NCBI GenBank assembly: GCA_964654465.1 | Contig: CAZZIO010000040.1 | Span: forward strand, 96,001-160,000 | Length of the DNA stretch: 64,000 nucleotides | Origin: an uncultured Dictyoglomota bacterium | GTDB taxonomy: Bacteria > Dictyoglomota > Dictyoglomia > Dictyoglomales > Dictyoglomaceae | Direction of reading: 5' to 3' | Shown here: piece by piece, positions 27,014 to 46,060 of the stretch | How positions within the stretch are numbered: position 1 is the stretch's first letter | Layout: every line of letters starts with the position of its first letter | Translations under genes and position numbers: made by a program | The notes under the pieces: generated by a model | Databases searched by the model: none | What the model saw: only the letters and a program-made list of their open reading frames with translations | What the model was told of the DNA's origin: nothing

Positions 27014-28984
27014 TTACCTCCCATTAGATTGTTTCTTTAATTTAAAATACTTACCTTCCACTCTATAAATAGAGAACCTTCTGCCACCATCAACAAAGAA
27101 CCTTCCATACATTTCTAAAAATTGCAATCTGGTAGAATGAACAAAGGCTGAAAGAGCACTTAAAACAAAATTTAATACTTGGCCGAAAACCCATACTAAT
27201 GGCAACAATATAAAACCTAAAACTGGAATCCCTTTAATCATATTAGCTAGTTGTGTTATCACGAAACCAAATATTGAACCTACTAAGTTCAAAGCAAAAA
27301 GTCTTGAATAGGAAAGAATATCTCCAACAAATGAGGTCAAGCCATATCCACCTAATATTCCGTATATACTAATTAATCCCACAATAAATCTTGCTACACC
27401 CTTATTATCCCTTCCTTGAGTTAACACAAGACCTATCAAGCTTAACCAAATTAGATATTTAAATATTTGTAAGTATGGAATATTTATTTTTAGTGCATTT
27501 CCTCCAAAATATATAAGGATTGATCCTAAAAAGAGTATCCAAAGTCCAGCATCATAAAAAGCCCCTTTATAATCCTTTACCCTCCAACAAGAAATAAATC
27601 TTAAAATTAAAGCATAAAATTGAGATATTACACCAATGAGAAGTGCAATTCCTAAAGCGGTTATTAAGTCCTGACTTGGATTTATAATAGGGAATATCCC
27701 TATAAATTTACCGTCAGGACCTAAAAATATCTGATTACCAAAAAAACTCCAAGTAATTATACCAACTAAAATAGATGGGAAACTTAGAATAGTTAATAAA
27801 TCCAACAATTCCTTAGTTTCATCTTCGGGTTTATAAACTTTCTTTATCCATATTGTAGAGATGAGTAAAAGAAGTCCATAACCCACATCCCCCAAACAAA
27901 TACCAAAAAATAACATATAAAAAGGTACCATAAAGGGAGTAGGATCTATAAATCCATAAGGAGGAAGTCCATAAAGCTTCGTTAAAAATTCAAAGGGTTT
28001 TATAAATTTAGGATTATCTAAAAGTACAGGTGGATCCTCATCGGGTAATGGATCTCTACTCTCAAAGCCAAAATCGGTAAGTCTTTTTTTAACAATATTT
28101 AGAAATTCGTTTTTATCCTTTTTAGGTATCCAACCAGAAAAAACAGAAAAATATTTACTTCTATAAGAATACTCTTTATAACCCAACTCTCCTACCTTAG
28201 AAAGGTAATAATCATACCAGGCAAGTATGTTTTTCTTTCTAGTATATAGATCTTTAGCCTTCTCAAAAAGTTCGGAAAGTTCTTTTTTTAATTTTATTAG
28301 AAAATTACTTATCTTCTCAAGGGCAGTTTTTGGATAATGTTTTAAATAAGGGATTCTTTTATTCTCAAAATTATATTTTGTTAACAGGGATTCAAAATAG
28401 AATATTTTATCCTTAGGTATAAGGATAACTATCCTTACTTCACCGTTTATTTCAAAATACTTATACCAACTTTCCTCTAATATATCACTTGCTTCCCTCA
28501 CAAACTCGGAAAAATCATCCTTTTTAAAACTTCCGCTATACAGGTTAAATCGCTTAAAGGTTCTGGGAAAATTTAATTCTGAATCCAGAAATTCCCAATA
28601 TTTAGTTTCCTCATACAAAGCAGTCAAAATTTTCTCTTTTTCTTCTATTACTGAAAGCTTTTTTTCTAAACTTTTTGCTTCCTTATATAAACTTTCTAAG
28701 GAGACCTCACTCCTTAATTTTTCAAACTCTTCTTCAGAAATTTCCTCTCTACCAGCAAAAAAAGCTTCTAAAAAACCCTTTTTTTGTGGATAAAATATAT
28801 TTATAATCCTTAGTATATCCTCTATTCTTGAAATTTCGTTATCATATGGGTTTCCTTTTTCTGGGGTCTCCTCATCTCCTAATTTCTCCCAATGGATACG
28901 GGGGAACTCTTTGAATATATCTCTCAATATACTCTCTTCATTCTTAGGAACAATTAACCAAAATTTCTCTACATCTAAAATCAT
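27014..28984 (-). CDS. ntpI: V/A-type ATP synthase subunit I
   Basis: DPTPF..PFY..FFG..LGDVGYG, DILSYSRLFAL and HSTRLQFLE. Confidence 0.96.
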   Translation of the reverse strand: MILDVEKFWLIVPKNEESILRDIFKEFPRIHWEKLGDEETPEKGNPYDNEISRIEDILRIINIFYPQKKGFLEAFFAGREEISEEEFEKLRSEVSLESLYKEAKSLEKKLSVIEEKEKILTALYEETKYWEFLDSELNFPRTFKRFNLYSGSFKKDDFSEFVREASDILEESWYKYFEINGEVRIVILIPKDKIFYFESLLTKYNFENKRIPYLKHYPKTALEKISNFLIKLKKELSELFEKAKDLYTRKKNILAWYDYYLSKVGELGYKEYSYRSKYFSVFSGWIPKKDKNEFLNIVKKRLTDFGFESRDPLPDEDPPVLLDNPKFIKPFEFLTKLYGLPPYGFIDPTPFMVPFYMLFFGICLGDVGYGLLLLISTIWIKKVYKPEDETKELLDLLTILSFPSILVGIITWSFFGNQIFLGPDGKFIGIFPIINPSQDLITALGIALLIGVISQFYALILRFISCWRVKDYKGAFYDAGLWILFLGSILIYFGGNALKINIPYLQIFKYLIWLSLIGLVLTQGRDNKGVARFIVGLISIYGILGGYGLTSFVGDILSYSRLFALNLVGSIFGFVITQLANMIKGIPVLGFILLPLVWVFGQVLNFVLSALSAFVHSTRLQFLEMYGRFFVDGGRRFSIYRVEGKYFKLKKQSNGR

Positions 28985-34237: not shown

Positions 34238-35305
34238 ATGAAGGGTAATAGTGTTCTAAAAATCGTATTTCTTGTATTTATTGTTCTTTTTATATTAGGC
34301 GGTGCTTTTGTTGCCTTTGTTTATCATCAGATGAAAAACTATCCCGTAATCAAAGTAAACAATATCCCCATAAGCAGACAGGAATACAAGGACAGATTAA
34401 ATTTTATGAAAACCCAATATGCCATATTATACAATATTGATTTTACAACAACCGATGGACAGAAACTCTTAAGTAAGGTAAAAGAAGAAACTATAAAAGA
34501 TTTAGCTCGTTGGAAGATATTACAAGAAGAGGCTAAAAAAAGAGGGATTAGTCTCTCCAACCAAGAGGTAGAACAGAGATTAAAAGAGATAGAAAAGGAA
34601 TTTCCAAATACTCTTCAATTTGAGATGGCTCTTGCCCAATACGGTTTAGATAGAAATACATTTAAAGAGGAATTAAAGAAAAATCTCCTTTATAGAAAAT
34701 TGATGAATGAAATTGGTAAGGATGAAAAAGTTTCAGAGGATGAAATTAAAAAATATTATAATGAAAACATAAAACTTTTTGAACATCCCAAAGAATATAA
34801 AGTGCACTTGATACTTGTAAAAGATGAGAAAAAAGCAAACCAAATATATAACGATTTAGTAAATAATAAAATAACCTTTACTGAGGCAGCTAAAAAATAT
34901 TCTGAAGACACAACTACAAAGGACAAGGGTGGAGAATTAGGATTTGTTATAGAAGGAACATTACCAGAAGAAGTAGAAAAAGTAACAATAAAACTTCCAA
35001 TCAATCAAATAAGTAAACCTATTAAAACACAAGATGGTTATTATATTACTAAGGTTTCAGAAATTAAAGAGGCCTATACAACACCATATTTCCAAGCAAA
35101 AGCAGAAATTGAAGAAAAACTTCTTACTGATAAAAGAGGCAAAGTCATAAACAAATGGTTAGAAGATCAATTAAACAAAGCAAAAATTGAAAAAGATTTT
35201 TCAGACAAAGATCTCTGGATAGTAATATGGAGAAAGTTAATAGAGATACAACAGTTTTTCTATAGAAAAGAGGCAAAAACACCTCTTCCAAAAACAGATG
35301 AATAG
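34238..35305 (+). CDS. PrsA/SurA-like parvulin peptidyl-prolyl isomerase, membrane anchored
   Basis: N-terminal TM helix, SurA N-like region, HLILV...AKKYSED..KGGELG parvulin domain; standard position after mfd. Confidence 0.88.
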   Translation: MKGNSVLKIVFLVFIVLFILGGAFVAFVYHQMKNYPVIKVNNIPISRQEYKDRLNFMKTQYAILYNIDFTTTDGQKLLSKVKEETIKDLARWKILQEEAKKRGISLSNQEVEQRLKEIEKEFPNTLQFEMALAQYGLDRNTFKEELKKNLLYRKLMNEIGKDEKVSEDEIKKYYNENIKLFEHPKEYKVHLILVKDEKKANQIYNDLVNNKITFTEAAKKYSEDTTTKDKGGELGFVIEGTLPEEVEKVTIKLPINQISKPIKTQDGYYITKVSEIKEAYTTPYFQAKAEIEEKLLTDKRGKVINKWLEDQLNKAKIEKDFSDKDLWIVIWRKLIEIQQFFYRKEAKTPLPKTDE

Positions 35306-35381
35306 GATTTTTATGAGTTTATAGAACATAGGTAAAATCTTATTCAGAAACATTCAAGATAGAAAAATTTAGCTTGAATAC

Positions 35382-35409
35382 TTGCTTTTTTTCAAGTTGG
35401 TGCTATAAT
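35382..35409 (+). promoter_or_regulatory. Candidate promoter for mazG-hup
   Basis: TTGCTT (35382-35387), 16 nt, TATAAT (35404-35409) preceded by TGC (extended -10). Confidence 0.65.
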
Positions 35410-35449
35410 CTTAGTGAAAATCAAATTTTTACAGATAAGAAGAAAGGCG

Positions 35450-36226
35450 ATGAATAGAAAAGAGGATATATGTAAAGAATTTATAGAATTATATAATGTT
35501 GTTGAGAGGGTAAGAAAGGAATGCCCATGGGATCAAAAACAAACCCCTCAGTCATTGATTCCTTATCTATTAGAGGAGACCTATGAATTGATTGAAGGGT
35601 TAGAAGAAAATAATTCTGAGAAGATAAAAGAAGAGTTAGGAGATGTACTATTACATATCCTTATGCAAAGCGTTATGGGAGAGGAAGAAAAAAAATTTAG
35701 TTTTGCAGAAGTATGTAAAAATTTAAGAACCAAGTTAATAATAAGACATCCTCATGTTTTTGGAAATGTGGAAGTTAATGGAGTAAAAGATATTTTAACA
35801 AATTGGGAAAAAATTAAAAGTCAAGAAAAAGAAGAAAAAGGTATATTAAGTGGTGTACCATTGAACATGCCATCCCTTTTATCTGCCTTTAGAATTCAAG
35901 AAAAGGCTTCTCATGTAGGATTTGATTGGGAAAAGACTGAAGATATATTACCAAAACTAAAAGAGGAATTTAAAGAATTAGAAGAAACAATCACTAACAA
36001 GAATAAAGAAAAAATAGAAGAAGAAATTGGAGATATCCTTTTCACTATAGTAAATATATCGCGTCATTTAAACATAGAACCCGAAGAAGCATTACGCAAA
36101 ACTAACAAGAAATTTATTAAAAGATTTGAGTTTATAGAGAAAAAGATAAAAGAGTTAGGAAAAGATTGGAAAAATCTTACCTTAAAAGAATTAAATGAAC
36201 TTTGGGAACTTTCGAAAACTTCATAG
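35450..36226 (+). CDS. mazG: Nucleoside triphosphate pyrophosphohydrolase MazG
   Basis: CPWDQKQT, EETYE, EELGD, RHPHVF, GFDW and EEIGDILF; ATG at 35450 after AAGG preferred over GTG at 35414. Confidence 0.95.
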   Translation: MNRKEDICKEFIELYNVVERVRKECPWDQKQTPQSLIPYLLEETYELIEGLEENNSEKIKEELGDVLLHILMQSVMGEEEKKFSFAEVCKNLRTKLIIRHPHVFGNVEVNGVKDILTNWEKIKSQEKEEKGILSGVPLNMPSLLSAFRIQEKASHVGFDWEKTEDILPKLKEEFKELEETITNKNKEKIEEEIGDILFTIVNISRHLNIEPEEALRKTNKKFIKRFEFIEKKIKELGKDWKNLTLKELNELWELSKTS

Positions 36227-36266
36227 ACTTATGATATAAATCCATTAAGAAAGGGGGTGAATAAGG

Positions 36267-36542
36267 ATGAAAAAGGCCGATTTCATCGCAAAGGTAGCAG
36301 AGAAGGCAAAAATCACAAAGAAAGAGGCAACTAAAGTAGTAAATGCTGTATTAGAAACTATAACCGAAGCATTATCTAAGGGGGATACAGTTCAATTTGT
36401 AGGATTTGGTACTTTCTCTGTAAGAAAGAGAGCAGCTAGAGAGGGAAGAAACCCTCGTACACAACAACCAATTAAAATACCAGCAACAAAAGTTCCTGTA
36501 TTCCGTCCCGGAAAAGAGCTTCGCGAAGCAGTAAAGAAATAA
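36267..36542 (+). CDS. hup: DNA-binding protein HU
   Basis: GFGTF..RKRAAREGRNP.T...IPA..VP.FRPGK. Confidence 0.98.
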   Translation: MKKADFIAKVAEKAKITKKEATKVVNAVLETITEALSKGDTVQFVGFGTFSVRKRAAREGRNPRTQQPIKIPATKVPVFRPGKELREAVKK

Positions 36543-36547
36543 ATCTA

Positions 36548-36590
36548 AAGTCCCAGGCTGGCTAATTCCAGCCTGGGACTTATTATTTTT
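36548..36590 (+). terminator. Intrinsic terminator-like hairpin after hup
   Basis: Perfect 14 bp stem AAGTCCCAGGCTGG / CCAGCCTGGGACTT with a 6 nt loop, followed by ATTATTTTT. Confidence 0.8.
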
Positions 36591-36602
36591 AGGAGTGAAA
36601 AA

Positions 36603-37700
36603 ATGGCAAAGAGGCTATTTTTAGAGGATGAGCATAAAAAATTAAAGGCTAAGTTTTTTGAGTTTGCAAATTGGTGGATGCCCTTAGAATATGTAGGAAC
36701 AGTAAAAGAACACCTTGCTGTAAGATATGAAGTAGGAATTTTTGATATATCCCACATGGGAAGAATTGTAGTTAATGGCAAAAACTCTAAAGACCTCCTT
36801 CAATATACAACTTCTAACGACATTAATAAATTACACCCAGGAAAGGCTCAGTATTCTTTAGTTTTAACCCCTCAAGGGACAATTATGGATGATATTCTCG
36901 TATATATGATTTCAGAAGAAGAATTTCTATTAATAGTAAATGCTATTAATACAGAGAAAATATTTAATTGGCTATTAGAAAATAATAAAAAGTTTAATGT
37001 CTATATTGAAGATATAACCTTTCAAACAAATCTATTAGCTATTCAGGGACCAGAAGCTGAGAAAATTGTTCAAAAATATACAAATTATCCTCTAAATAAT
37101 ATTCCATATTATTATTTTGTAAAGGACAAAATAATAAATAAAAATGTTATAATATCAAGAACTGGATATACAGGAGAAGACGGTTTTGAGATTGTTGTAT
37201 CTATAGAGGATGTGAAAGAAATTTTTAACATCTTTATACAAGAAGAAAAAATAACACTTTGCGGGCTTGGAGCAAGGGATACCTTAAGGTTAGAAATGGG
37301 GTATCCCTTATATGGTCATGAATTAGATGAAAACACAACCCCTTGGGAAGCAAATTTAGGATGGGTTGTAAAGTTGGAAAAAGGTGAATTTATTGGAAAG
37401 GATGCTTTGATTGATAAAAGAGATAAAAAAACAAAAACCCTAAATGGATTTGAGCTTTTGGAAAATGGTATTCCGAGAGCAGGATATGAAGTCTATAGTT
37501 ATGAAGAAAAAATAGGTTATGTGACAAGTGGAAATTATTCCCCTATATTGAAACGAGGAATTGGATTATTATATAATAATTCAACTCATGAAGAAGTAAG
37601 AATTAAAGCAAGAGATAAATTTTTAAAAGCTAAAATTGTCAAGCCCCCCTTTGTTAAGAATACATCTATAAAGAAAGGAGAGAAGAAAAATGTATCCTGA
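36603..37700 (+). CDS. gcvT: Glycine cleavage system T protein
   Basis: [32 protein letters not shown] and GYVTSG. Confidence 0.97.
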
Positions 37701-38067
37701 AAATCTTAAATATTCAAAAGAACATGAATGGGTAAAATTAGAAGGAAATATTGCAATTGTTGGTATCTCTTTTTATGCTCAAGAAGAACTTGGTGATATT
37801 GTTTACGTAGATCTACCAGAAATAGGTAAAACTGTAAAACAAAATGATGTATTAGCTGTAATTGAATCTGTAAAATCTGCTTCCGATGTATATTCACCCA
37901 TATCAGGTAAGGTAATAGAAGTAAATGAAAAACTTAAAGAAAAACCAGAAATAATAAATGAAGATCCCTACAATGACGGCTGGATCGCAAAATTGGAAAT
38001 TAGTGATCCTAAGGAATTAGACACACTAATGAATGCAGAGGAGTATAAAAAATTTATAGGAGCTTAA
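37690..38067 (+). CDS. gcvH: Glycine cleavage system H protein
   Basis: YSKEHEW, LGDIVYV, lipoyl-lysine motif ESVKSASD and NEDPYNDGW. Confidence 0.98.
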
Positions 38068-38069
38068 AT

Positions 38070-39428
38070 ATGGCTTATATCCCCCATACTTCAAAAGAAA
38101 TTTTAGAGATGCTAAAAGCCATAGGAGTAAGTAGTACTGAGGAGTTATTCAACGATATACCAGATGATATTAAGAAAAAAGCGAAAGAGAATTTTATTTT
38201 GCCTCCCCCAATATCAGAAATAGATCTTATCAACGAGATACAAAATTTAGCTCAAAAAAATAAAGGCGAAAAATTTATATCCTTCTTAGGGGGTGGTGCT
38301 TATAAACACTATATACCCCCCTTTGTTAAAATAGTAGCTCAATTTCCCAACTTCTATACTTCCTATACTCCATATCAGCCTGAAATTAGTCAGGGAGTTT
38401 TACAATCCATATTTGAATATCAAAGTCTTATATGCGATCTTACTCAGATGGATGTAGCTAATGCTTCCCTTTATGAAGCAGGCTCAGGTATTTGTGAAGC
38501 AGTTCTCATGGGAGTAAGGATAAATGGTAAAAAGGAAGTTTTAGCATCCGAAGGGTTACATCCAGAATATTTAGAGACACTTTATACATATTTAGGGGCT
38601 CAAGAAATTAACATTGTAAAGATTCCACTTAATAAAAATGGTGAAACAGATATTGATTTTCTAAAAGAAAAAGTATCCAATAATACTTCCTCTGTAATTA
38701 TTCAAAACCCTAATTTTTTTGGAGTTATAGAAAAGGAATTAGAAGAAATAGAAAAAATAACCCACCAACATGATTCTTTACTAATACTTTCCATATATCC
38801 TATATCCTTAGGAATTTTAAAAGCTCCAGGAGAGTACAATGTGGATATTGTAGTCGGAGAAGGCCAATCCTTAGGTATACCATTAGGCTTTGGTGGGCCA
38901 TATTTAGGTATCTTGGCTACAAAAAGAGAATATATAAGGCAAATGCCTGGGAGAATTGTAGGAGAGACAAGGGATATAAATAATAAGAGAGGATTTGTAA
39001 ATACTCTTCAAACCCGTGAACAACATATAAGAAGAGCAAAAGCCACATCCAATATATGCACAAACGAAGCTCTCACAGCAATAATGGCTGCAGTATATAT
39101 GTCTCTTTTAGGCAAGAAGGGTATTAGAAAAATTGCCGAAATTTGTTTCTCTAGAACTCATTATTTAAAGGATTTTTTAACTAAAGAAGGTTTTGAATTA
39201 ACCTATCCTAATTCCTATAATTTTAACGAATTTGTTTTAAAAACTCCAATAGATAGTAATATAGTTATAGATGCACTCAAGAAAAAAAATATTATAGCAG
39301 GAATTCCTCTTAAAAGGTTCTATCCTGAAAGAGAAAAAGAAATCCTCATTGCAGTTACTGAGATGAATTCATTAGATGATATTAGCTTTTTAGTAACTTC
39401 TTTAAAGGAGGTCATATATAAAAATTGA
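38070..39428 (+). CDS. gcvPA: Glycine dehydrogenase subunit 1
   Basis: [18 protein letters not shown] and [17 protein letters not shown]. Confidence 0.98.
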
Positions 39429-40867
39429 ATAAAGAAATACCTCTCCTAAAAGATTTACATGATAATAACAGACCTACAATCAATCTTCCAGATCCTTTAG
39501 AAGATTATCTTCCAGAGAGGATCTTACCTGAAAAATTAATAAGAAAAGACATACCTATTCCTCAAATAAGTGAGCCAGAAGTAGTGAGACATTTTACCAA
39601 TCTTTCTCAAAGAGGTTATGGGGTTGATACAGGTTTCTACCCTTTAGGTTCATGTACCATGAAATATAATCCCAAAATAAATGAAGAAATAGCAAGCTTT
39701 CCATCATTTGCTAATTTACATCCCTATACTCCAGAAGATTTATCCCAGGGAAGTTTAGAAATTATCTATAAACTTGGAGAATATCTATCTAATATAACAG
39801 GCATGGATAAATTTACTTTTCAACCTTCTGCAGGAGCTCATGGAGAACTTACAGCATTGTTAATTATTAAAGCATATTTTAAAGACAAAGGAGAGAAAAG
39901 AAAAATTGTATTAGCTCCAGATTCAGCCCATGGAACAAATCCTGCAAGTGCAACAATGGCAGGATTTGAAACTATAGAAATACCATCTGATGAAAGAGGA
40001 CTTGTAAATCCTAATATATTAGCAAAATATCTAAATAAAGATGTGGCTGTTTTAATGCTAACTAATCCAAACACTCTTGGTCTTTTTGAAAAAGATATAT
40101 TGAAGATTTCCCAAATGGTACATGAGACAGGAGCTCTTTTATATTATGATGGAGCAAATTTAAATGGTATCATGGGATATGCAAGACCTGGTGATATGGG
40201 ATTTGATGCTGTCCATATAAACCTTCATAAAACTTTTTCCACTCCCCATGGAGGTGGAGGCCCAGGAGCAGGTCCTGTAGGTGTAAAATCATTTTTAAAA
40301 GATTATTTACCAAAACCAACAGTAGAATTTGATGGAGAAAGGTATTATCTTAATTATGATATCAAAAAAAGTATAGGAAGAGTAAGAACGTTTTATGGAA
40401 ATTTTTTAGTACTTCTAAAAGCTTATTGCTATATTAGACTTCTTGGATCTGAAGGTTTGAAGAATGTTACCGAAATAGCTGTATTAAATGCCAATTATTT
40501 AAAAGAAAAATTAAAAGATCTTTTCCATCTACCTTACCCTGATCTCTGTAAGCATGAATTTGTTCTCTCTGGTAAAAAACAAAAAGAAAAAGGAATTAAA
40601 GTACTTGATATAGCTAAAAGACTACTTGATTATGGAGTACATTCTCCTACAATATATTTCCCTCTTATAGTAGAAGAAGCTTTAATGATTGAGCCTACAG
40701 AAACTGAAACCAAATATACCTTAGATCAATTTGTAGAAATTTTAAAAACTATTATTAAAGAGAGTGAGGAAAATCCTGATATATTAAAATCAGCCCCTCA
40801 TAATACACCTGTAGGTAGATTAGATGAAGTATATGCAGCTAAAATGCTAAAGGTAAACTGGAGATGA
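39425..40867 (+). CDS. gcvPB: Glycine dehydrogenase subunit 2
   Basis: [35 protein letters not shown] (PLP lysine) and [11 protein letters not shown] start. Confidence 0.98.
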
Positions 40868-41667
40868 TATCAGTAAAACCTATTAGAACCCTTCCACTAA
40901 GTATCACAGGGGAATGGTGTGCTTTGCAATGTGATCATTGTAAGGCTCACTTTTTAAAAAATATGACAAATATAGATCATCTTTCAAAAAAGCTTGAGTT
41001 AAATTATTTTAAAAGTATTTTGGTTAGTGGCGGATATAATAAAAAAGGCTATCTTCCCCTCTCAAAATCCTCTATAAATCTTATGAAAAAATTAAAAGAA
41101 TCAGGATATAAACTAAACTTTCATATGGGTCTTATAGATGAAAAAACAATTAAACATTTAATATCACTACCAGATATGGTTTCATATGATTTGATGTTAG
41201 ATGACTTTGTTATTAAAAATATTTTTCATCTTAAGGATAAGAATAGTAACGATTTTAAAGAAGAATACTTTATGATAAAAGAATATTTTCCAATAAGTCC
41301 TCATATCTTAATGGGAGCTAATTATGGAAAGATAGAAAAAGAATATGAAGAAATAGATTTTTTATCTAAAGATCCTACTCCTGAGAAAATTATATTCATT
41401 GTGATTACTCCCATTCAAAACACGTCTTTCCAAGAAATATCTTTACCTTCTATAAAAGAAGTTGAAGAACTTTGGAATTATGCTAAGAAAAAATTACCTA
41501 ATACTAAGTTTTATCTTGGATGTGTACGCCCAAATGGTAATTATAGATATGAATTAGACTCTCTAGCCATAGACCTTAACTTTCATGCTATTGTTAATCC
41601 TCACCCTGAAGCTATAAAATCCCAGAATAATATAAAAATCTTTGAAGAATGCTGTGCCCTATTATGA
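40864..41667 (+). CDS. lipS1: Radical SAM protein, LipS1-type lipoyl synthase component
   Basis: [12 protein letters not shown] (CX3CX2C), LGCVRP and C-terminal ECC; ATGA overlap with gcvPB. Confidence 0.78.
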
Positions 41668-42617
41668 GATTTGGAATTTCTTCAGGTAGTTTGGAAGTAC
41701 TTAAAAGAAAATATATAAAAGAAGATTCACCAACAACTTTATATCTTATGACACTACAAAAATGTCTCAATAATTGTGCCTTCTGCACTCAAGCAAGAGG
41801 AAGTCACGTTGATGTTTTTATGCTTTCAAGAATTACATGGCCTCTCATAGAAATAGAAGATTTAATAAACCTATTAGAGGAATATAATCCTTTTAAAAGA
41901 TTATGTTTTCAAGTGACAAATCATCTAAGTTGGGAAAAAGAATTAGTTGAAACTATAAAACTATTTAAAATCTTCAATTTACCTATTTCTATTTCTGCCC
42001 CCTTCAATAACATATCTCATATAGAAAAATTCTTCGAATTAGAAATTGATAGAATAAACATATCTATTGATGCGGTAGGAAAAGATCTTTTTAGAAAAAT
42101 AAAATATGGAGAATTTGAAGAAAGATTAGAGTTTATTAAAGAAGCAAGTATAAAGTTTCCTTCCCAAATCACATCTCATATAATTGTAGGATTAGGAGAA
42201 GAGGAAAAGGAGTTAGTTTACATTATAGATAAGTTATCAAAATGGAAGGTAACAGTAGCTTTATTTGCATTTACACCTTTAAGTGGAACTCGTCTTGAAA
42301 ACATGAACCCTCCTAATTATTACAAATACAGAAAAATACAACTTATCACTTTTCTTTTACAGAGAAATTTAATCTCTTTTGATGAATTGTCATTTGATAA
42401 AAATGACAATTTATTAATTACGGAGGATATTTTATCATTAGCAGAGCCTTTTTTTGAAATAATTTTTAAAACGACTGGATGCCCTAATTGCAATAGACCT
42501 TATTATAATGAAAGCCCAAGAATAGTACCTTATAACTTCCCAAGAAATTTAAAAGATATAGAGATTGAAGAGATAAAATATCTACTAAGAAATGGAAGGG
42601 CAAGAATTAATTTATAA
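41664..42617 (+). CDS. lipS2: Radical SAM protein, LipS2-type lipoyl synthase component
   Basis: CLNNCAFCTQAR, LSRITWP and TTGCPNCNRPYYNE. Start set at 41664 (ATGA overlap with the upstream gene). Confidence 0.82.
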   Translation: MRFGISSGSLEVLKRKYIKEDSPTTLYLMTLQKCLNNCAFCTQARGSHVDVFMLSRITWPLIEIEDLINLLEEYNPFKRLCFQVTNHLSWEKELVETIKLFKIFNLPISISAPFNNISHIEKFFELEIDRINISIDAVGKDLFRKIKYGEFEERLEFIKEASIKFPSQITSHIIVGLGEEEKELVYIIDKLSKWKVTVALFAFTPLSGTRLENMNPPNYYKYRKIQLITFLLQRNLISFDELSFDKNDNLLITEDILSLAEPFFEIIFKTTGCPNCNRPYYNESPRIVPYNFPRNLKDIEIEEIKYLLRNGRARINL

Positions 42618-43992
42618 AACGTTAAAAATAGTACGTGATTATGCCAAAGCTAATCATTTAAAAATCTATATAGTAGGTGGTTTTGTAAGGGATTACCTTA
42701 TTGGAAAAGAATTAAAGGACGTAGACTTTTTAGTTTACCCTTTAAATTATAATTTTTTATTTGATCTAACTAACCTTTTTAACGGTAAACTTATCAAATT
42801 AGATGAGGAGCGAGAGTATTACAGAATAATTATAAATAATAATGATGGAGACATCATTTTAGATTTTACCCCCATATATGAAAACAATTTACTATTAGAA
42901 CTTCTAAGGCGTGATTTTACTATAAATTCTATTGCATTAAATCTTTTCAGCTTTAAAATAATTGATCCTTTAAATGGCTTAAAAGATTTAGAAAGAGGAA
43001 TACTAAGAATATCTTCACCTAACTCCTTTAAGGAAGATCCTTTAAGGATTCTAAGAGCTTTTAGATTTTTAGGATATGGTTTTAAAATAGAAAAAAATAC
43101 TTATGAGAAGATTATAGAAGATAGAGAAAAATTAAAATCAGTGAAAGCAGAAAGGATACACGACGAAATTTACAAAATACTAATTTCGTCATTCTCAAGT
43201 TATCTATGGATTAAAATGGTAGAAACAAAAGTTTTAGAGGTTATTTTACCAGAGCTTTTTGTATTAAAAGATATTCCATGGAGTAATCCCCACCATGAAG
43301 ATCCATTGAGGCATTCTATAACTTCTTTATCTGTTCTTGAAGATTTAATATACAATATAGAATCTATTTTTCCAGACTCATATCAACAAATCTTAGCATA
43401 CTTAAATGAAAAATTCTTTTCAAACTATACAAAGCTTGAAACTCTAAAATTAGCAGTATTACTTCATGATATAGGTAAATCTGAAACTTTTTCTATCGAT
43501 GAAGCCTCTTTAGTTCATTACTATGGACATTCACAAAAAGGAGTTGAACTTTTAGATAATATAGGAGAAAGATTGAAGTTAAGTAAAAAAGAAATAATTT
43601 TTTTAAAAAAACTTATTGGGACTCATATGTACCCTTTAAGCTTCATACAAAATCCAGTATCAGACCCTATTTATAAACTCATTTTAAGAGTAAAAGATGA
43701 TGTGCCTGCTTTGATACTACTCTTTATGGCTGATCAAATATCTATTAAAGGTAAAATAGAAAACTTGAATTGGTATAGGAAAATATTAAATGAATTTTTC
43801 AAAATAAAAAATATTCCTAAACCCTTATTAACAGGTAATGAAATCATGGAAATATTTAATCTAACCCCGTCTCCCCTAATAGGTAAATTAAAAGAAAAGC
43901 TTATAGAAGCACAGATGAATAATAAAATATCTACAAGAGATGAAGCCATAAGATACCTTGAAGAAATATTGAAAAATGAAACCAATAGCTAA
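42592..43992 (+). CDS. Class II tRNA nucleotidyltransferase with HD domain (likely CC-adding)
   Basis: GGFVRD..DVD, RRDFTIN, EDPLR, ERIHDE, LLHDIGK and LLTGNEIM; short segment before RRD. Confidence 0.87.
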   Translation: MEGQELIYKTLKIVRDYAKANHLKIYIVGGFVRDYLIGKELKDVDFLVYPLNYNFLFDLTNLFNGKLIKLDEEREYYRIIINNNDGDIILDFTPIYENNLLLELLRRDFTINSIALNLFSFKIIDPLNGLKDLERGILRISSPNSFKEDPLRILRAFRFLGYGFKIEKNTYEKIIEDREKLKSVKAERIHDEIYKILISSFSSYLWIKMVETKVLEVILPELFVLKDIPWSNPHHEDPLRHSITSLSVLEDLIYNIESIFPDSYQQILAYLNEKFFSNYTKLETLKLAVLLHDIGKSETFSIDEASLVHYYGHSQKGVELLDNIGERLKLSKKEIIFLKKLIGTHMYPLSFIQNPVSDPIYKLILRVKDDVPALILLFMADQISIKGKIENLNWYRKILNEFFKIKNIPKPLLTGNEIMEIFNLTPSPLIGKLKEKLIEAQMNNKISTRDEAIRYLEEILKNETNS

Positions 43993-44674
43993 AAAAATAA
44001 TTGAATTTACTATGAAAGATCTTTTTTATAAATTAAATTTTCCTTTTGAGTGGGGAAGAGAAAGTTTATATCAATTATATTTTTATGAAAAAGGAGAAGA
44101 ACGAATAATAGAAGAAAGTTTCAAAAATTATAAAATCTTTCAGAAATGGATGAATTCACATAACATTATTCTCTCTGATTTTATAGAAAAACTAAAAAGC
44201 ATTAGAGATATAAGGAGTGATTTTTTAAGCTTTAAACGTTCTTCTCTTAAAGATTTAATTAGAGATTTATACAATATTATAGACGATATCAGAATATTTA
44301 TTGGAAAAAATAGCATACCTTTACCTCAAGATATCTATATACCAGATATTAACATATTAGGTCCTGAAAATTTTACATGGGAAGTTCTCTCTTTTTATAT
44401 CAAGTCTATAAGGTTTATTACATTCTCTATCAATTTTTTTAATTATCCCCAAATATCTGAAGAAATAATTCTTTATAACAACAGAAGATATTTTCCCGAA
44501 CATTCTTACAAGTTAATAGATGAAAAAGTATATCTTCAAGACTTAATTCTATCTTGGTCGGGAATACCTTCTCAAAACTATATAAAAGAATTTTATCTTC
44601 CAAAAGATATAAAGTTAGAAGATGGACTTGAATATTTTACAATAAAAAACAAAATATTTATCTTTCATAAATAA
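43976..44674 (+). CDS. Hypothetical protein
   Basis: 232-codon open frame in AT-rich DNA overlapping the upstream stop; no motif recognised. Confidence 0.65.
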   Translation: MKPIAKKIIEFTMKDLFYKLNFPFEWGRESLYQLYFYEKGEERIIEESFKNYKIFQKWMNSHNIILSDFIEKLKSIRDIRSDFLSFKRSSLKDLIRDLYNIIDDIRIFIGKNSIPLPQDIYIPDINILGPENFTWEVLSFYIKSIRFITFSINFFNYPQISEEIILYNNRRYFPEHSYKLIDEKVYLQDLILSWSGIPSQNYIKEFYLPKDIKLEDGLEYFTIKNKIFIFHK

Positions 44675-45149
44675 TCAATTCCAATTTCTTTAACCAAAAT
44701 TCCCCACTTGCATCCTTCTCAAGAATTATCTCTATAATATTTGTTTGACCTACTATCCAGTACTTTGTAACATCAAAAGAAGGAGTAATATAATATTCAC
44801 TGCCAAAATCAAAACCTGAAATCACATTTTTTGAGTTTACATATATGGAAATAGGAGCCCATGTTTCTTCAGTCATAAAAGAAGAACTCATACCTGTAAT
44901 CTTTAAAACTACTCTTTTGGGATTAAAAAGAGGAGTTACTGGAGTATATAACTTCAACTGTCCTTCTGCCCTTAACATAGCCAAATGATATTCCCCATTA
45001 CTTCTTTCTAATACTACTCCTTTTCCCATCTCAAAAACTAAATTTCCCTTGGGAGGATTTTTAGAGAAATCAATGGTAAAACTTTGTTTTGCAAGTCCTA
45101 TATTTAGTAAAAATAAAAGCATTATAAAAAGAGACATATATCTTTTCAT
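44658..45149 (-). CDS. Hypothetical exported protein
   Basis: Strong SD AAGGAGG; signal-peptide-like MKRYMSLFIMLLFLLNIGLA; beta-rich mature part. Confidence 0.75.
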   Translation of the reverse strand: MKRYMSLFIMLLFLLNIGLAKQSFTIDFSKNPPKGNLVFEMGKGVVLERSNGEYHLAMLRAEGQLKLYTPVTPLFNPKRVVLKITGMSSSFMTEETWAPISIYVNSKNVISGFDFGSEYYITPSFDVTKYWIVGQTNIIEIILEKDASGEFWLKKLELIIYER

Positions 45150-45163
45150 GCTTAAACCTCCTT

Positions 45164-46060
45164 TTATTCTTCTTTTTTAGCTCTTGGATGAGCCTTTGTG
45201 TAAATATTTCTTATCTGTTCTGAAGTAAGATGAGTATAAATCTGAGTTGTAGAAATTCTTACATGACCCAGAAGCTCTTGTACATACCTAAGATCAGCTC
45301 CTCCTTCTAAAAGGTGTGTGGCAAAGGTATGTCTTAAAATATGAGGAGAAACCTTTTTTTCTAAAAATTTAGTATATCTTTTCAAAATTAACCTTACTCC
45401 ACGATCTGTAATTCTTTCTCCTTTAGCATTTAGAAAAAATGCCTTTTCAGGTTTCTTCAATAGTTTAGACCTTACATGATCATTATAAAGCTGTAATATC
45501 TTTAAAGTATTTTCTTCAATTATCACTACTCTTTCTTTAGCCCTTTTTCCAAAAACTCTTATCTCTCCATAATTCCAATTAATATCTTCCTCATTTATAC
45601 CTACAAGCTCACTTACTCTTATCCCTGTAGCATATAGAGTCTCTAAAATAGCTCTATCTCTTATACCCAAAAGATTATCTAAGGATGGAGCATCGAGAAG
45701 TTTATATACCTCATCAATAGATAAAAACTGAGGCAATCTTTTCTCTATTTTAGGTATAGGAATGAAAACAGTAAGATCTTCTTTAATTTTATCATAGGTA
45801 AGAAGATATTCAAAAAAACTTCTTAAAGAAGTTAATTTTCTTGCAATAGTACTCTTCTTATAGTTTTTTTGAGCAATATTTTGTATGTAAGACCTGATCA
45901 CTCTTTTATTCGTAAAATCCAAATCTCTCTCTTTACAATAATTATAGAAATCCAAAAGATCAATATTATAACCTCTCAAAGTATTTGGAGAATAATTACG
46001 TTCAAATCTCAAATAATTAAGATATCCTTCTATTTCTTTTTTTAAATCCAATTTTGTCAT
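45164..46060 (-). CDS. xerC: Tyrosine recombinase XerC
   Basis: [27 protein letters not shown] and TQIY, ending in HPRA; follows topA-trmFO. Confidence 0.9.

Follow-up and report, generated by a model that had tools for sequence, protein, structure and literature searches.

Gene content of the locus

The window analysed here, a stretch of 64,000 nucleotides from contig CAZZIO010000040.1 of an uncultured Dictyoglomaceae bacterium (phylum Dictyoglomota), has a GC content of 31.7% and carries the glycine cleavage genes gcvT, gcvH, gcvPA and gcvPB followed by two radical S-adenosylmethionine (SAM) genes, lipS1 and lipS2, which are very likely to encode the two-protein lipoyl synthase LipS1/LipS2. 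All six genes lie on the forward strand (Table 1), at the positions given for them in an original prediction made from the sequence of the window, and for the four gcv genes the Pfam and NCBIfam matches agree (E 1e-49 to 1e-221).

The genes were said to be joined by successive ATGA overlaps, which is correct for the gcvPB/lipS1 junction (40864-40867) and for the lipS1/lipS2 junction (41664-41667, if lipS2 begins at the ATG at 41664) but not for the other three, which are an 11-nt overlap (gcvT/gcvH), a 2-nt gap (gcvH/gcvPA) and a TTGA overlap at the TTG start of gcvPB (gcvPA/gcvPB). The longest open reading frame (ORF) for lipS2 begins at 41649, but because the ATG at 41664 is kept in 10 of 10 relatives' loci while the upstream start varies (ATG, GTG or TTG), lipS2 was taken as 41664-42617.

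Table 1. Features of the gcv-lipS locus, in window coordinates
Feature	Position	Strand	Supporting match or score
Terminator-like hairpin, GC-rich, 14 bp, U-rich tail	36548..36581	+	z = -4.64
gcvT, aminomethyltransferase	36603..37700	+	NF001567, 439.8 bits (cut-off 300); Pfam GCV_T
gcvH, lipoyl carrier H protein, presumed direct substrate	37690..38067	+	NF002270, 182 bits (cut-off 117)
gcvPA, glycine dehydrogenase subunit 1	38070..39428	+	NF001696, 596.5 bits (cut-off 364)
gcvPB, glycine dehydrogenase subunit 2, TTG start	39425..40867	+	NF003346, 735.8 bits (cut-off 441)
lipS1, 267 aa	40864..41667	+	NF053742, 245.8 bits (cut-off 230)
lipS2, 317 aa from conserved ATG; alternative start 41649 (322 aa)	41664..42617	+	NF053743, 310.8 bits (cut-off 270)
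cca-type tRNA nucleotidyltransferase	42592..43992	+	Pfam PolyA_pol and HD

The two radical SAM proteins belong to the LipS1 and LipS2 families

The first radical SAM protein matched the NCBIfam equivalog model NF053742 ('LipS1 family lipoyl synthase') over residues 6-264 and the second matched NF053743 ('LipS2 family lipoyl synthase'), both above the cut-off, and the E-values of these hidden Markov model (HMM) matches (5.7e-73 and 9.5e-93 respectively) place the assignment far beyond chance. LipS1 gave no Pfam hit at E <= 0.01 and no match to the LipA model TIGR00510 or the BioB model TIGR00433, and LipS2 reached only 20.4 bits against the former (cut-off 310.25) and 38 bits against the latter (cut-off 225). 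A regular expression search of both proteins found all of the motifs that had been named for them (CX3CX2C, GCVR and CC in LipS1, CX3CX2C and TTGCPNCNRP in LipS2) and neither of the LipA motifs, CX4CX5C (the absence of which had also been predicted) and RSS[YF].

LipS1 contains exactly six cysteines, three in the radical SAM cluster motif CX3CX2C (Cys19/23/26, in CALQCDHC at 19-26), one in GCVR at 219-222 (Cys220) and two in the CC at 263-264, and in an alignment of 18 sequences, down to 29% identity, all six were invariant, as was His147. Mutagenesis of the Thermococcus kodakarensis protein TkLipS1 assigned C27/C31/C34 to the radical SAM cluster and C230, C276, C277 and the fully conserved H159 to an auxiliary [4Fe-4S] cluster (Neti 2022, PMC9585515), and by their matching pattern and position His147, Cys220 and Cys263/264 are candidate ligands of such a cluster in the window protein. 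In LipS2 (motifs CLNNCAFC and TTGCPNCNRP), with residues counted from the ATG at 41664, the cysteines C34/C38/C41, C81 and C273/C276 did not vary among 10 sequences with identities as low as 27%. Numbered from the longer ORF they become C39/43/46, C86 and C278/281, which is near to the numbering of the TkLipS2 ligands (C39/C43/C46 plus C85, C276 and C279; PMC9585515), and by the same reasoning Cys81 and Cys273/276, the latter two within GCPNCNRP, are auxiliary-cluster candidates.

The motif strings that the prediction had presented as established survive in a looser form. For LipS1 the alignment supports GCxRP plus CC, with the GCVR version confined to the Dictyoglomaceae and one further sequence and the remaining members having GCMR or GCER; for LipS2 the corresponding alignment supports GCPx(1 or 7)CNRP, since in two distant sequences these cysteines are spaced seven residues apart instead of one, and the residue at which the first T had been placed is variable. 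The strings as first written were not found in the literature excerpts.

AlphaFold2 modelled LipS1 as a BioB/HydE-like barrel with a predicted local distance difference test score (pLDDT) of 94.8, its nearest solved folds being HydE and BioB (template modelling (TM) score 0.61-0.67, approximately 12% identity), and LipS2 with a pLDDT of 81.8 that was weak only around the GCPNCNRP loop. No solved structure of any LipS1 or LipS2 relative was detectable by sequence, and prediction of a LipS1-LipS2 complex scored 0.00, which is no answer and bears neither way on a heterodimer.

Phylogeny had been proposed as a check, and both proteins were found inside the expected clades in trees that included a LipS2 from a Thermococcaceae metagenome-assembled genome (MAG; locus L076) and other archaeal sequences, not the T. 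kodakarensis sequences (TK2109 and TK2248) themselves. In the larger tree (a quick IQ-TREE analysis of 91 LipS2 and 7 LipS1 sequences) the two families were split at a Shimodaira-Hasegawa-like approximate likelihood ratio (SH-aLRT) support of 100, and the archaeal LipS2 proteins, that of the Thermococcaceae included, fell within the LipS2 family together with the window protein. The 11 Dictyoglomaceae LipS2 sequences formed one clade (support 100) on a long stem (0.64), the sister group of which was weakly supported (88, unstarred). A second tree had 57 rows, made up of LipS1 and LipS2 rows plus three other radical SAM proteins from the same genome as the window; here 28 LipS2 rows grouped together at SH-aLRT 96 and 26 LipS1 rows at 79 (unstarred), each group containing its window protein. 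Model scores above the equivalog cut-offs, retained ligand positions and clade membership thus uphold the identity that had been suggested for the pair.

Lipoylation genes elsewhere in the genome

The genome is 1.91 Mb in size and 99.97% complete, and a search of it, another of the proposed checks, found no lipA over the cut-off, the best match being LipS2 itself (19 bits against 310). There was likewise no bioB over the cut-off and no match at all to bioD. A single gene with the LplA/LipB catalytic domain (PF21948) was found, on another contig (C65) and thus unlinked to the gcv operon, and this is LipB (TIGR00214, 152.6 bits against 83.55; NF010925, 170.2 against 155); a search of the genome with PF21948 turned up no candidate for LipL, LipM or a ligase. 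Acyl carrier protein (ACP) is also encoded, and a probable biotinyl-carrier domain is present.

The lipoyl-related set consists of one GcvH, one E2 catalytic gene, one dihydrolipoyl dehydrogenase (Lpd) and one further lipoyl domain. GcvH, a match to the GcvH equivalog and the only GCV_H match in the genome, has a lysine at residue 62 within ...IESVKSASD..., the SVK of which we take to be the lipoyl-lysine motif. The second candidate acceptor is an 86-aa stand-alone lipoyl-domain ORF on contig C49, which lies 3' of a 794-aa ORF, presumed E1-like on positional grounds, and is followed by a 231-aa ORF for the E2 catalytic domain, so that the E2 of this 2-oxoacid dehydrogenase (C49:25278-28650) appears to be naturally split. 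The lipoyl match of the 86-aa ORF spans 27690-27905 and the ORF ends in TAA, and the 231-aa ORF has a GGGGG resembling a ribosome-binding site and a TTG start of its own. The dihydrolipoyl dehydrogenase gene is on the same contig; the three ORFs 5' of it (C49:2106-5554) have N-termini suggestive of a membrane protein of the YeeE/YedE type and of two small sulfur-carrier proteins of the DsrE/DsrF type.

Conservation within the family and layout in other phyla

Across 11 Dictyoglomaceae genomes LipS1 was over the cut-off in 10, the one lacking it being 72% complete, lipA was over the cut-off in none and lipB in all 11. The adjacency of gcvPB, lipS1 and lipS2 was kept in 10 of the 10 family loci carrying LipS1, cca lay directly 3' of lipS2 in nine of these (the contig of the tenth stops before cca), and named Dictyoglomaceae MAGs hold the same operon. 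LipS1 from these relatives was 45-62% identical to that of the window (nearest relative excluded) compared to 75-83% for the adjacent GcvPB (L014-L024), suggesting a much higher rate of evolution for LipS1 than for its neighbour within the family; such divergence may be the reason why LipS1 has been missed by the HMMs of a published census (see below) and by Pfam. The nearest named homologue (61% identity) is called 'radical SAM protein [Dictyoglomus]', and as far as this name goes it bears out the expectation that the annotation of these genes stops at radical SAM; the models of NCBIfam release 20, by contrast, score both proteins above their cut-offs.

A scan with the LipS2 alignment, taking one genome per species, gave 584 relatives, and only the 80 best were taken further; these are the loci most like the query and not a random sample, and many are cut by contig ends, so that the counts are lower bounds. 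At least 31 of the 80 hold gcvT, gcvPA or gcvPB, at least 23 hold the full set gcvT-H-PA-PB-lipS1-lipS2, and a further six hold a gcvH-like gene only. Most of the full sets are from Bacillota (Desulfitispora, Thermincola, Halothermothrix, Pelosinus, Sporomusa, Acidaminococcaceae, Symbiobacterium and Desulfitobacterium), and in Anaerolineae the order is lipS1-lipS2-gcvT-H-PA-PB. In five Peptostreptococcaceae loci (L060, L061, L070, L102 and L123) a gcvH-like gene lies approximately 2-3.5 kb 5' of lipS1-lipS2 and gcvT and gcvP are absent from the locus.

Downstream of lipS2, 22 of 39 ORFs were scanned, comprising the first ORF in 18 non-Dictyoglomaceae loci and the second ORF in four. The first encoded, in 16 of 18 cases, a LipM-like protein of 269-299 aa whose match to lipoate ligases was restricted to their catalytic part and lay below the cut-offs, and the second was dihydrolipoyl dehydrogenase (lpdA) in all four. 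The gcv-lipS layout is therefore not unusual, being common in Bacillota and Chloroflexota, and a link between bacterial LipS1/S2 and the H-protein was reported in 2022 (PMC9585515), where neighbourhood networks cluster bacterial LipS1/S2 with H-protein and lipoate-ligase genes.

A predicted LipB-LipS2-LipS1 pathway

We consider it very likely that the two genes after gcvPB encode a LipS1 plus LipS2 lipoyl synthase that is coupled to the gcv genes and fed by LipB. With one LipB, no lipA, and GcvH and the lipoyl domain as acceptors, the simplest pathway would run from LipB to LipS2 to LipS1. The unlinked LipB would use octanoyl-ACP to octanoylate GcvH at Lys62 and, probably, the free-standing lipoyl-domain protein of the split 2-oxoacid dehydrogenase E2 as well. 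LipS2 would then insert sulfur at C8 of the octanoyl-lysine and LipS1 a second sulfur at C6 of the 8-mercaptooctanoyl-lysine, each by means of its own auxiliary [4Fe-4S] cluster, an order expected by analogy with the characterised enzymes of T. kodakarensis. As lipS1 and lipS2 are translationally coupled to the gcv genes, the synthase would be made along with its substrate GcvH. The prediction that this bacterium lipoylates GcvH by an archaeal-type route thus applies to the sulfur-insertion half, whereas octanoyl transfer would fall to a bacterial LipB encoded elsewhere.

Several points weigh against this assignment. LipS1 exceeds the cut-off of its model by only 16 bits, and the support for its clade is 79 and unstarred; the Dictyoglomaceae are placed near the base of this clade, but the adjoining outgroup branches are very long and make that position unsafe. 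Equivalence to the T. kodakarensis residues was drawn from pattern and position and not from direct alignment. Catalysis by the Dictyoglomus LipS1/S2, like that of any LipB-fed LipS1/S2 system, is predicted, and so is action of the pair upon a true GcvH in bacteria, since the bacteria that have been studied use it for LbpA. Finally, a promoter scan did not pick one out for the operon and there is a terminator-like hairpin 21 nt 5' of gcvT.

The alternative that survives best, though unlikely, is that LipS1 and LipS2 lipoylate GcvH alone, the E2 domain being served by relay or salvage or the 2-oxoacid dehydrogenase remaining unlipoylated. The lipS genes are indeed linked to gcvH with the E2 locus on another contig, and in Bacillus lipoylation passes through GcvH first, but the only gene of the LplA/LipB family in this genome is LipB, described as an all-purpose transferase (Tanabe 2023, PMC10332631), and the PF21948 search gave no LipL, LipM or ligase candidate. 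Far less probable is that the two proteins form a biotin synthase, or some other sulfur- or carbon-inserting enzyme of the BioB/HydE kind, that merely adjoins gcv: the fold and the nearest solved relatives (BioB, HydE and PylB) would suit this, as would a genome without bioB over the cut-off but with a probable biotinyl-carrier domain, yet the BioB model falls well short of its cut-off for LipS2 and misses LipS1 while the equivalog hits are LipS1 and LipS2, the lack of a bioD match leaves no dethiobiotin as a substrate, the tight coupling kept throughout the family is with gcvPB, and in other phyla lipM-like and lpdA genes lie next to the pair. Least probable of all is service to an LbpA/sHdr-type sulfur-oxidation system with an incidental gcv position, for although LbpA is the only bacterial role of LipS1/S2 to have been studied experimentally (PMC10332631; 2026 preprint), the sole GCV_H-family match here is the GcvH equivalog, no lipoate ligase was found, and the census tables list no LbpA or sHdr for Dictyoglomus (PMC10332631).

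Extending the LipB-LipS2-LipS1 reading, we think it probable, with less assurance than for the window itself, that the whole phylum Dictyoglomota uses such a hybrid pathway, in which ACP-dependent LipB is joined to an archaeal-type LipS2/LipS1 pair as the sole synthase for GcvH and the split-E2 lipoyl domain.

Upstream and downstream of the operon

The hairpin lies directly 3' of hup, and at the corresponding position another Dictyoglomaceae genus also has a hairpin, though its sequence differs (L045:1894-1922). Transcription from hup may continue into the gcv operon, or the structure may serve in processing or stability. A sigma-70 promoter scan gave 49 sites compared to a mean of 50.3 in shuffled sequence and no promoter is proposed; within 35000-45500 there was no glycine riboswitch or other Rfam family, the two hits (E 0.49 and 0.74) being far below gathering scores.

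Near-identical copies of this stretch occur in hot-spring metagenomes. Contigs from one metatranscriptome library, belonging to a relative approximately 90-93% identical, extend over 36598-42659 in eight pieces and run across the gcvPA/gcvPB, gcvPB/lipS1, lipS1/lipS2 and lipS2/cca junctions; their depth declines along the operon, but these are contig means and not usable to rank expression. The contigs are compatible with transcription of the whole gcv-lipS set, a weak hint as DNA can occur in such libraries.

The cca gene overlaps lipS2 by 26 nt and is probably transcribed together with it, but is outside lipoylation. An ORF of 232 aa with no Pfam hit and a weak 20-bit match to KamC overlaps cca in turn (window 42592-44674), and both are also found 3' of lipS2 in two named Dictyoglomaceae MAGs; the transcription unit may extend to 44674.

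The 2023 census and what is new

The presence of LipS1/S2 in bacteria was established by Tanabe 2023 (PMC10332631), with LipM accompanying the pair in Thermotogota, Synergistota and Schekmanbacteria. In the species table of that census the rows of Dictyoglomus thermophilum and D. turgidum and three rows next to them are scored LipB=1, LipA=0, LipM=0, LipS1=0, LipS2=0, E2=1 and GcvH=1, and in the phylum table Dictyoglomota has LipA 0, LipS1+LipS2 0, LplA 0.2 and GcvH 1; in the part of the table consulted, the categories combine LipS1/S2 with LipA, Lpl, LipT or LipM and none combines it with LipB. The excerpted text mentions neither Dictyoglomota nor linkage to a gcv operon, and the figures may show gcv-linked examples. 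Tepidibacter thalassicus, Pelosinus fermentans and Paraclostridium sordellii are scored LipS1=1 and LipS2=0, whereas in our scan T. thalassicus (L070) and two Pelosinus MAGs each had a LipS2 gene. Together with the Dictyoglomaceae pairs this means that the census under-called the family, and entirely so in Dictyoglomota.

A literature search joining 'Dictyoglomus' with 'lipoyl synthase' found nothing, with the proviso that the network figures of Neti 2022 may hold gcv-linked examples, and one naming LipS1, LipB and 'glycine cleavage' together gave, among the titles listed, only the Neti, Tanabe and preprint group and general LipA papers. None of the enzymes, the curated models or the gcv-linked layout is new; modest novelty lies in the presence of the pair in a phylum scored as having no lipoyl synthase, and in its partner transferase being LipB and not LipM or a ligase.

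This removes the apparent anomaly of Dictyoglomota having lipoate-dependent enzymes and LipB but no sulfur-inserting enzyme in the census, and it offers a natural case in which octanoyl-proteins made by LipB would be the substrates of LipS2 and LipS1. The census models missed LipS1/S2 in at least Dictyoglomota and LipS2 in several Bacillota; if our reading is right, divergent bacterial pairs are under-counted and other lineages that seem to have no synthase may hide them. Knowledge of the LipS1/S2 enzyme mechanism is unchanged.

Comparison with known lipoylation systems

The LipS1/S2 pair of T. kodakarensis was reportedly first described by Jin 2020 (AEM). Its members, TK2109 (LipS1) and TK2248 (LipS2), belong by curated HMM to the same two families as the window pair, with which they have in common the CX3CX2C motif, the auxiliary Cys/His pattern, a BioB-like fold and the lack of the LipA motifs CX4CX5C and RSSY, and the window LipS2 is approximately 38% identical to a Thermococcaceae homologue. 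The archaeal genes, however, are more than 130 genes apart, whereas here they are adjacent and translationally coupled inside the gcv operon, and octanoate is attached in T. kodakarensis by a heterodimeric ligase while the only transferase here is the ACP-dependent LipB.

The operons of anaerobic Bacillota, with the order gcv-lipS1-lipS2-lipM-lpdA, are the same as those of Dictyoglomaceae from gcvT through lipS2 and differ beyond it, where Bacillota have a lipM-like gene and then lpdA but Dictyoglomaceae have cca, with LipB and lpdA encoded elsewhere in the genome.

The sLpl(AB)-LipS1/S2 pathway of sulfur oxidisers (Hyphomicrobium denitrificans and Thioalkalivibrio; PMC10332631) uses the same lipoyl synthase pair, but there a lipoate:protein ligase acts first, LbpA is the target, and LipB/LipA are present as well; according to excerpts of the 2026 preprint, model bacteria use LipS1/S2 for LbpA and LipB/LipA for GcvH. 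The Dictyoglomaceae genome differs in that no ligase, LbpA or LipA was found in it.

With the LipB/LipA pathway of E. coli the first step, LipB acting with octanoyl-ACP, is the same, but in Dictyoglomaceae two enzymes would stand in for LipA, and sulfur would be expected to enter at C8 and then C6 instead of at C6 and then C8 as in E. coli.

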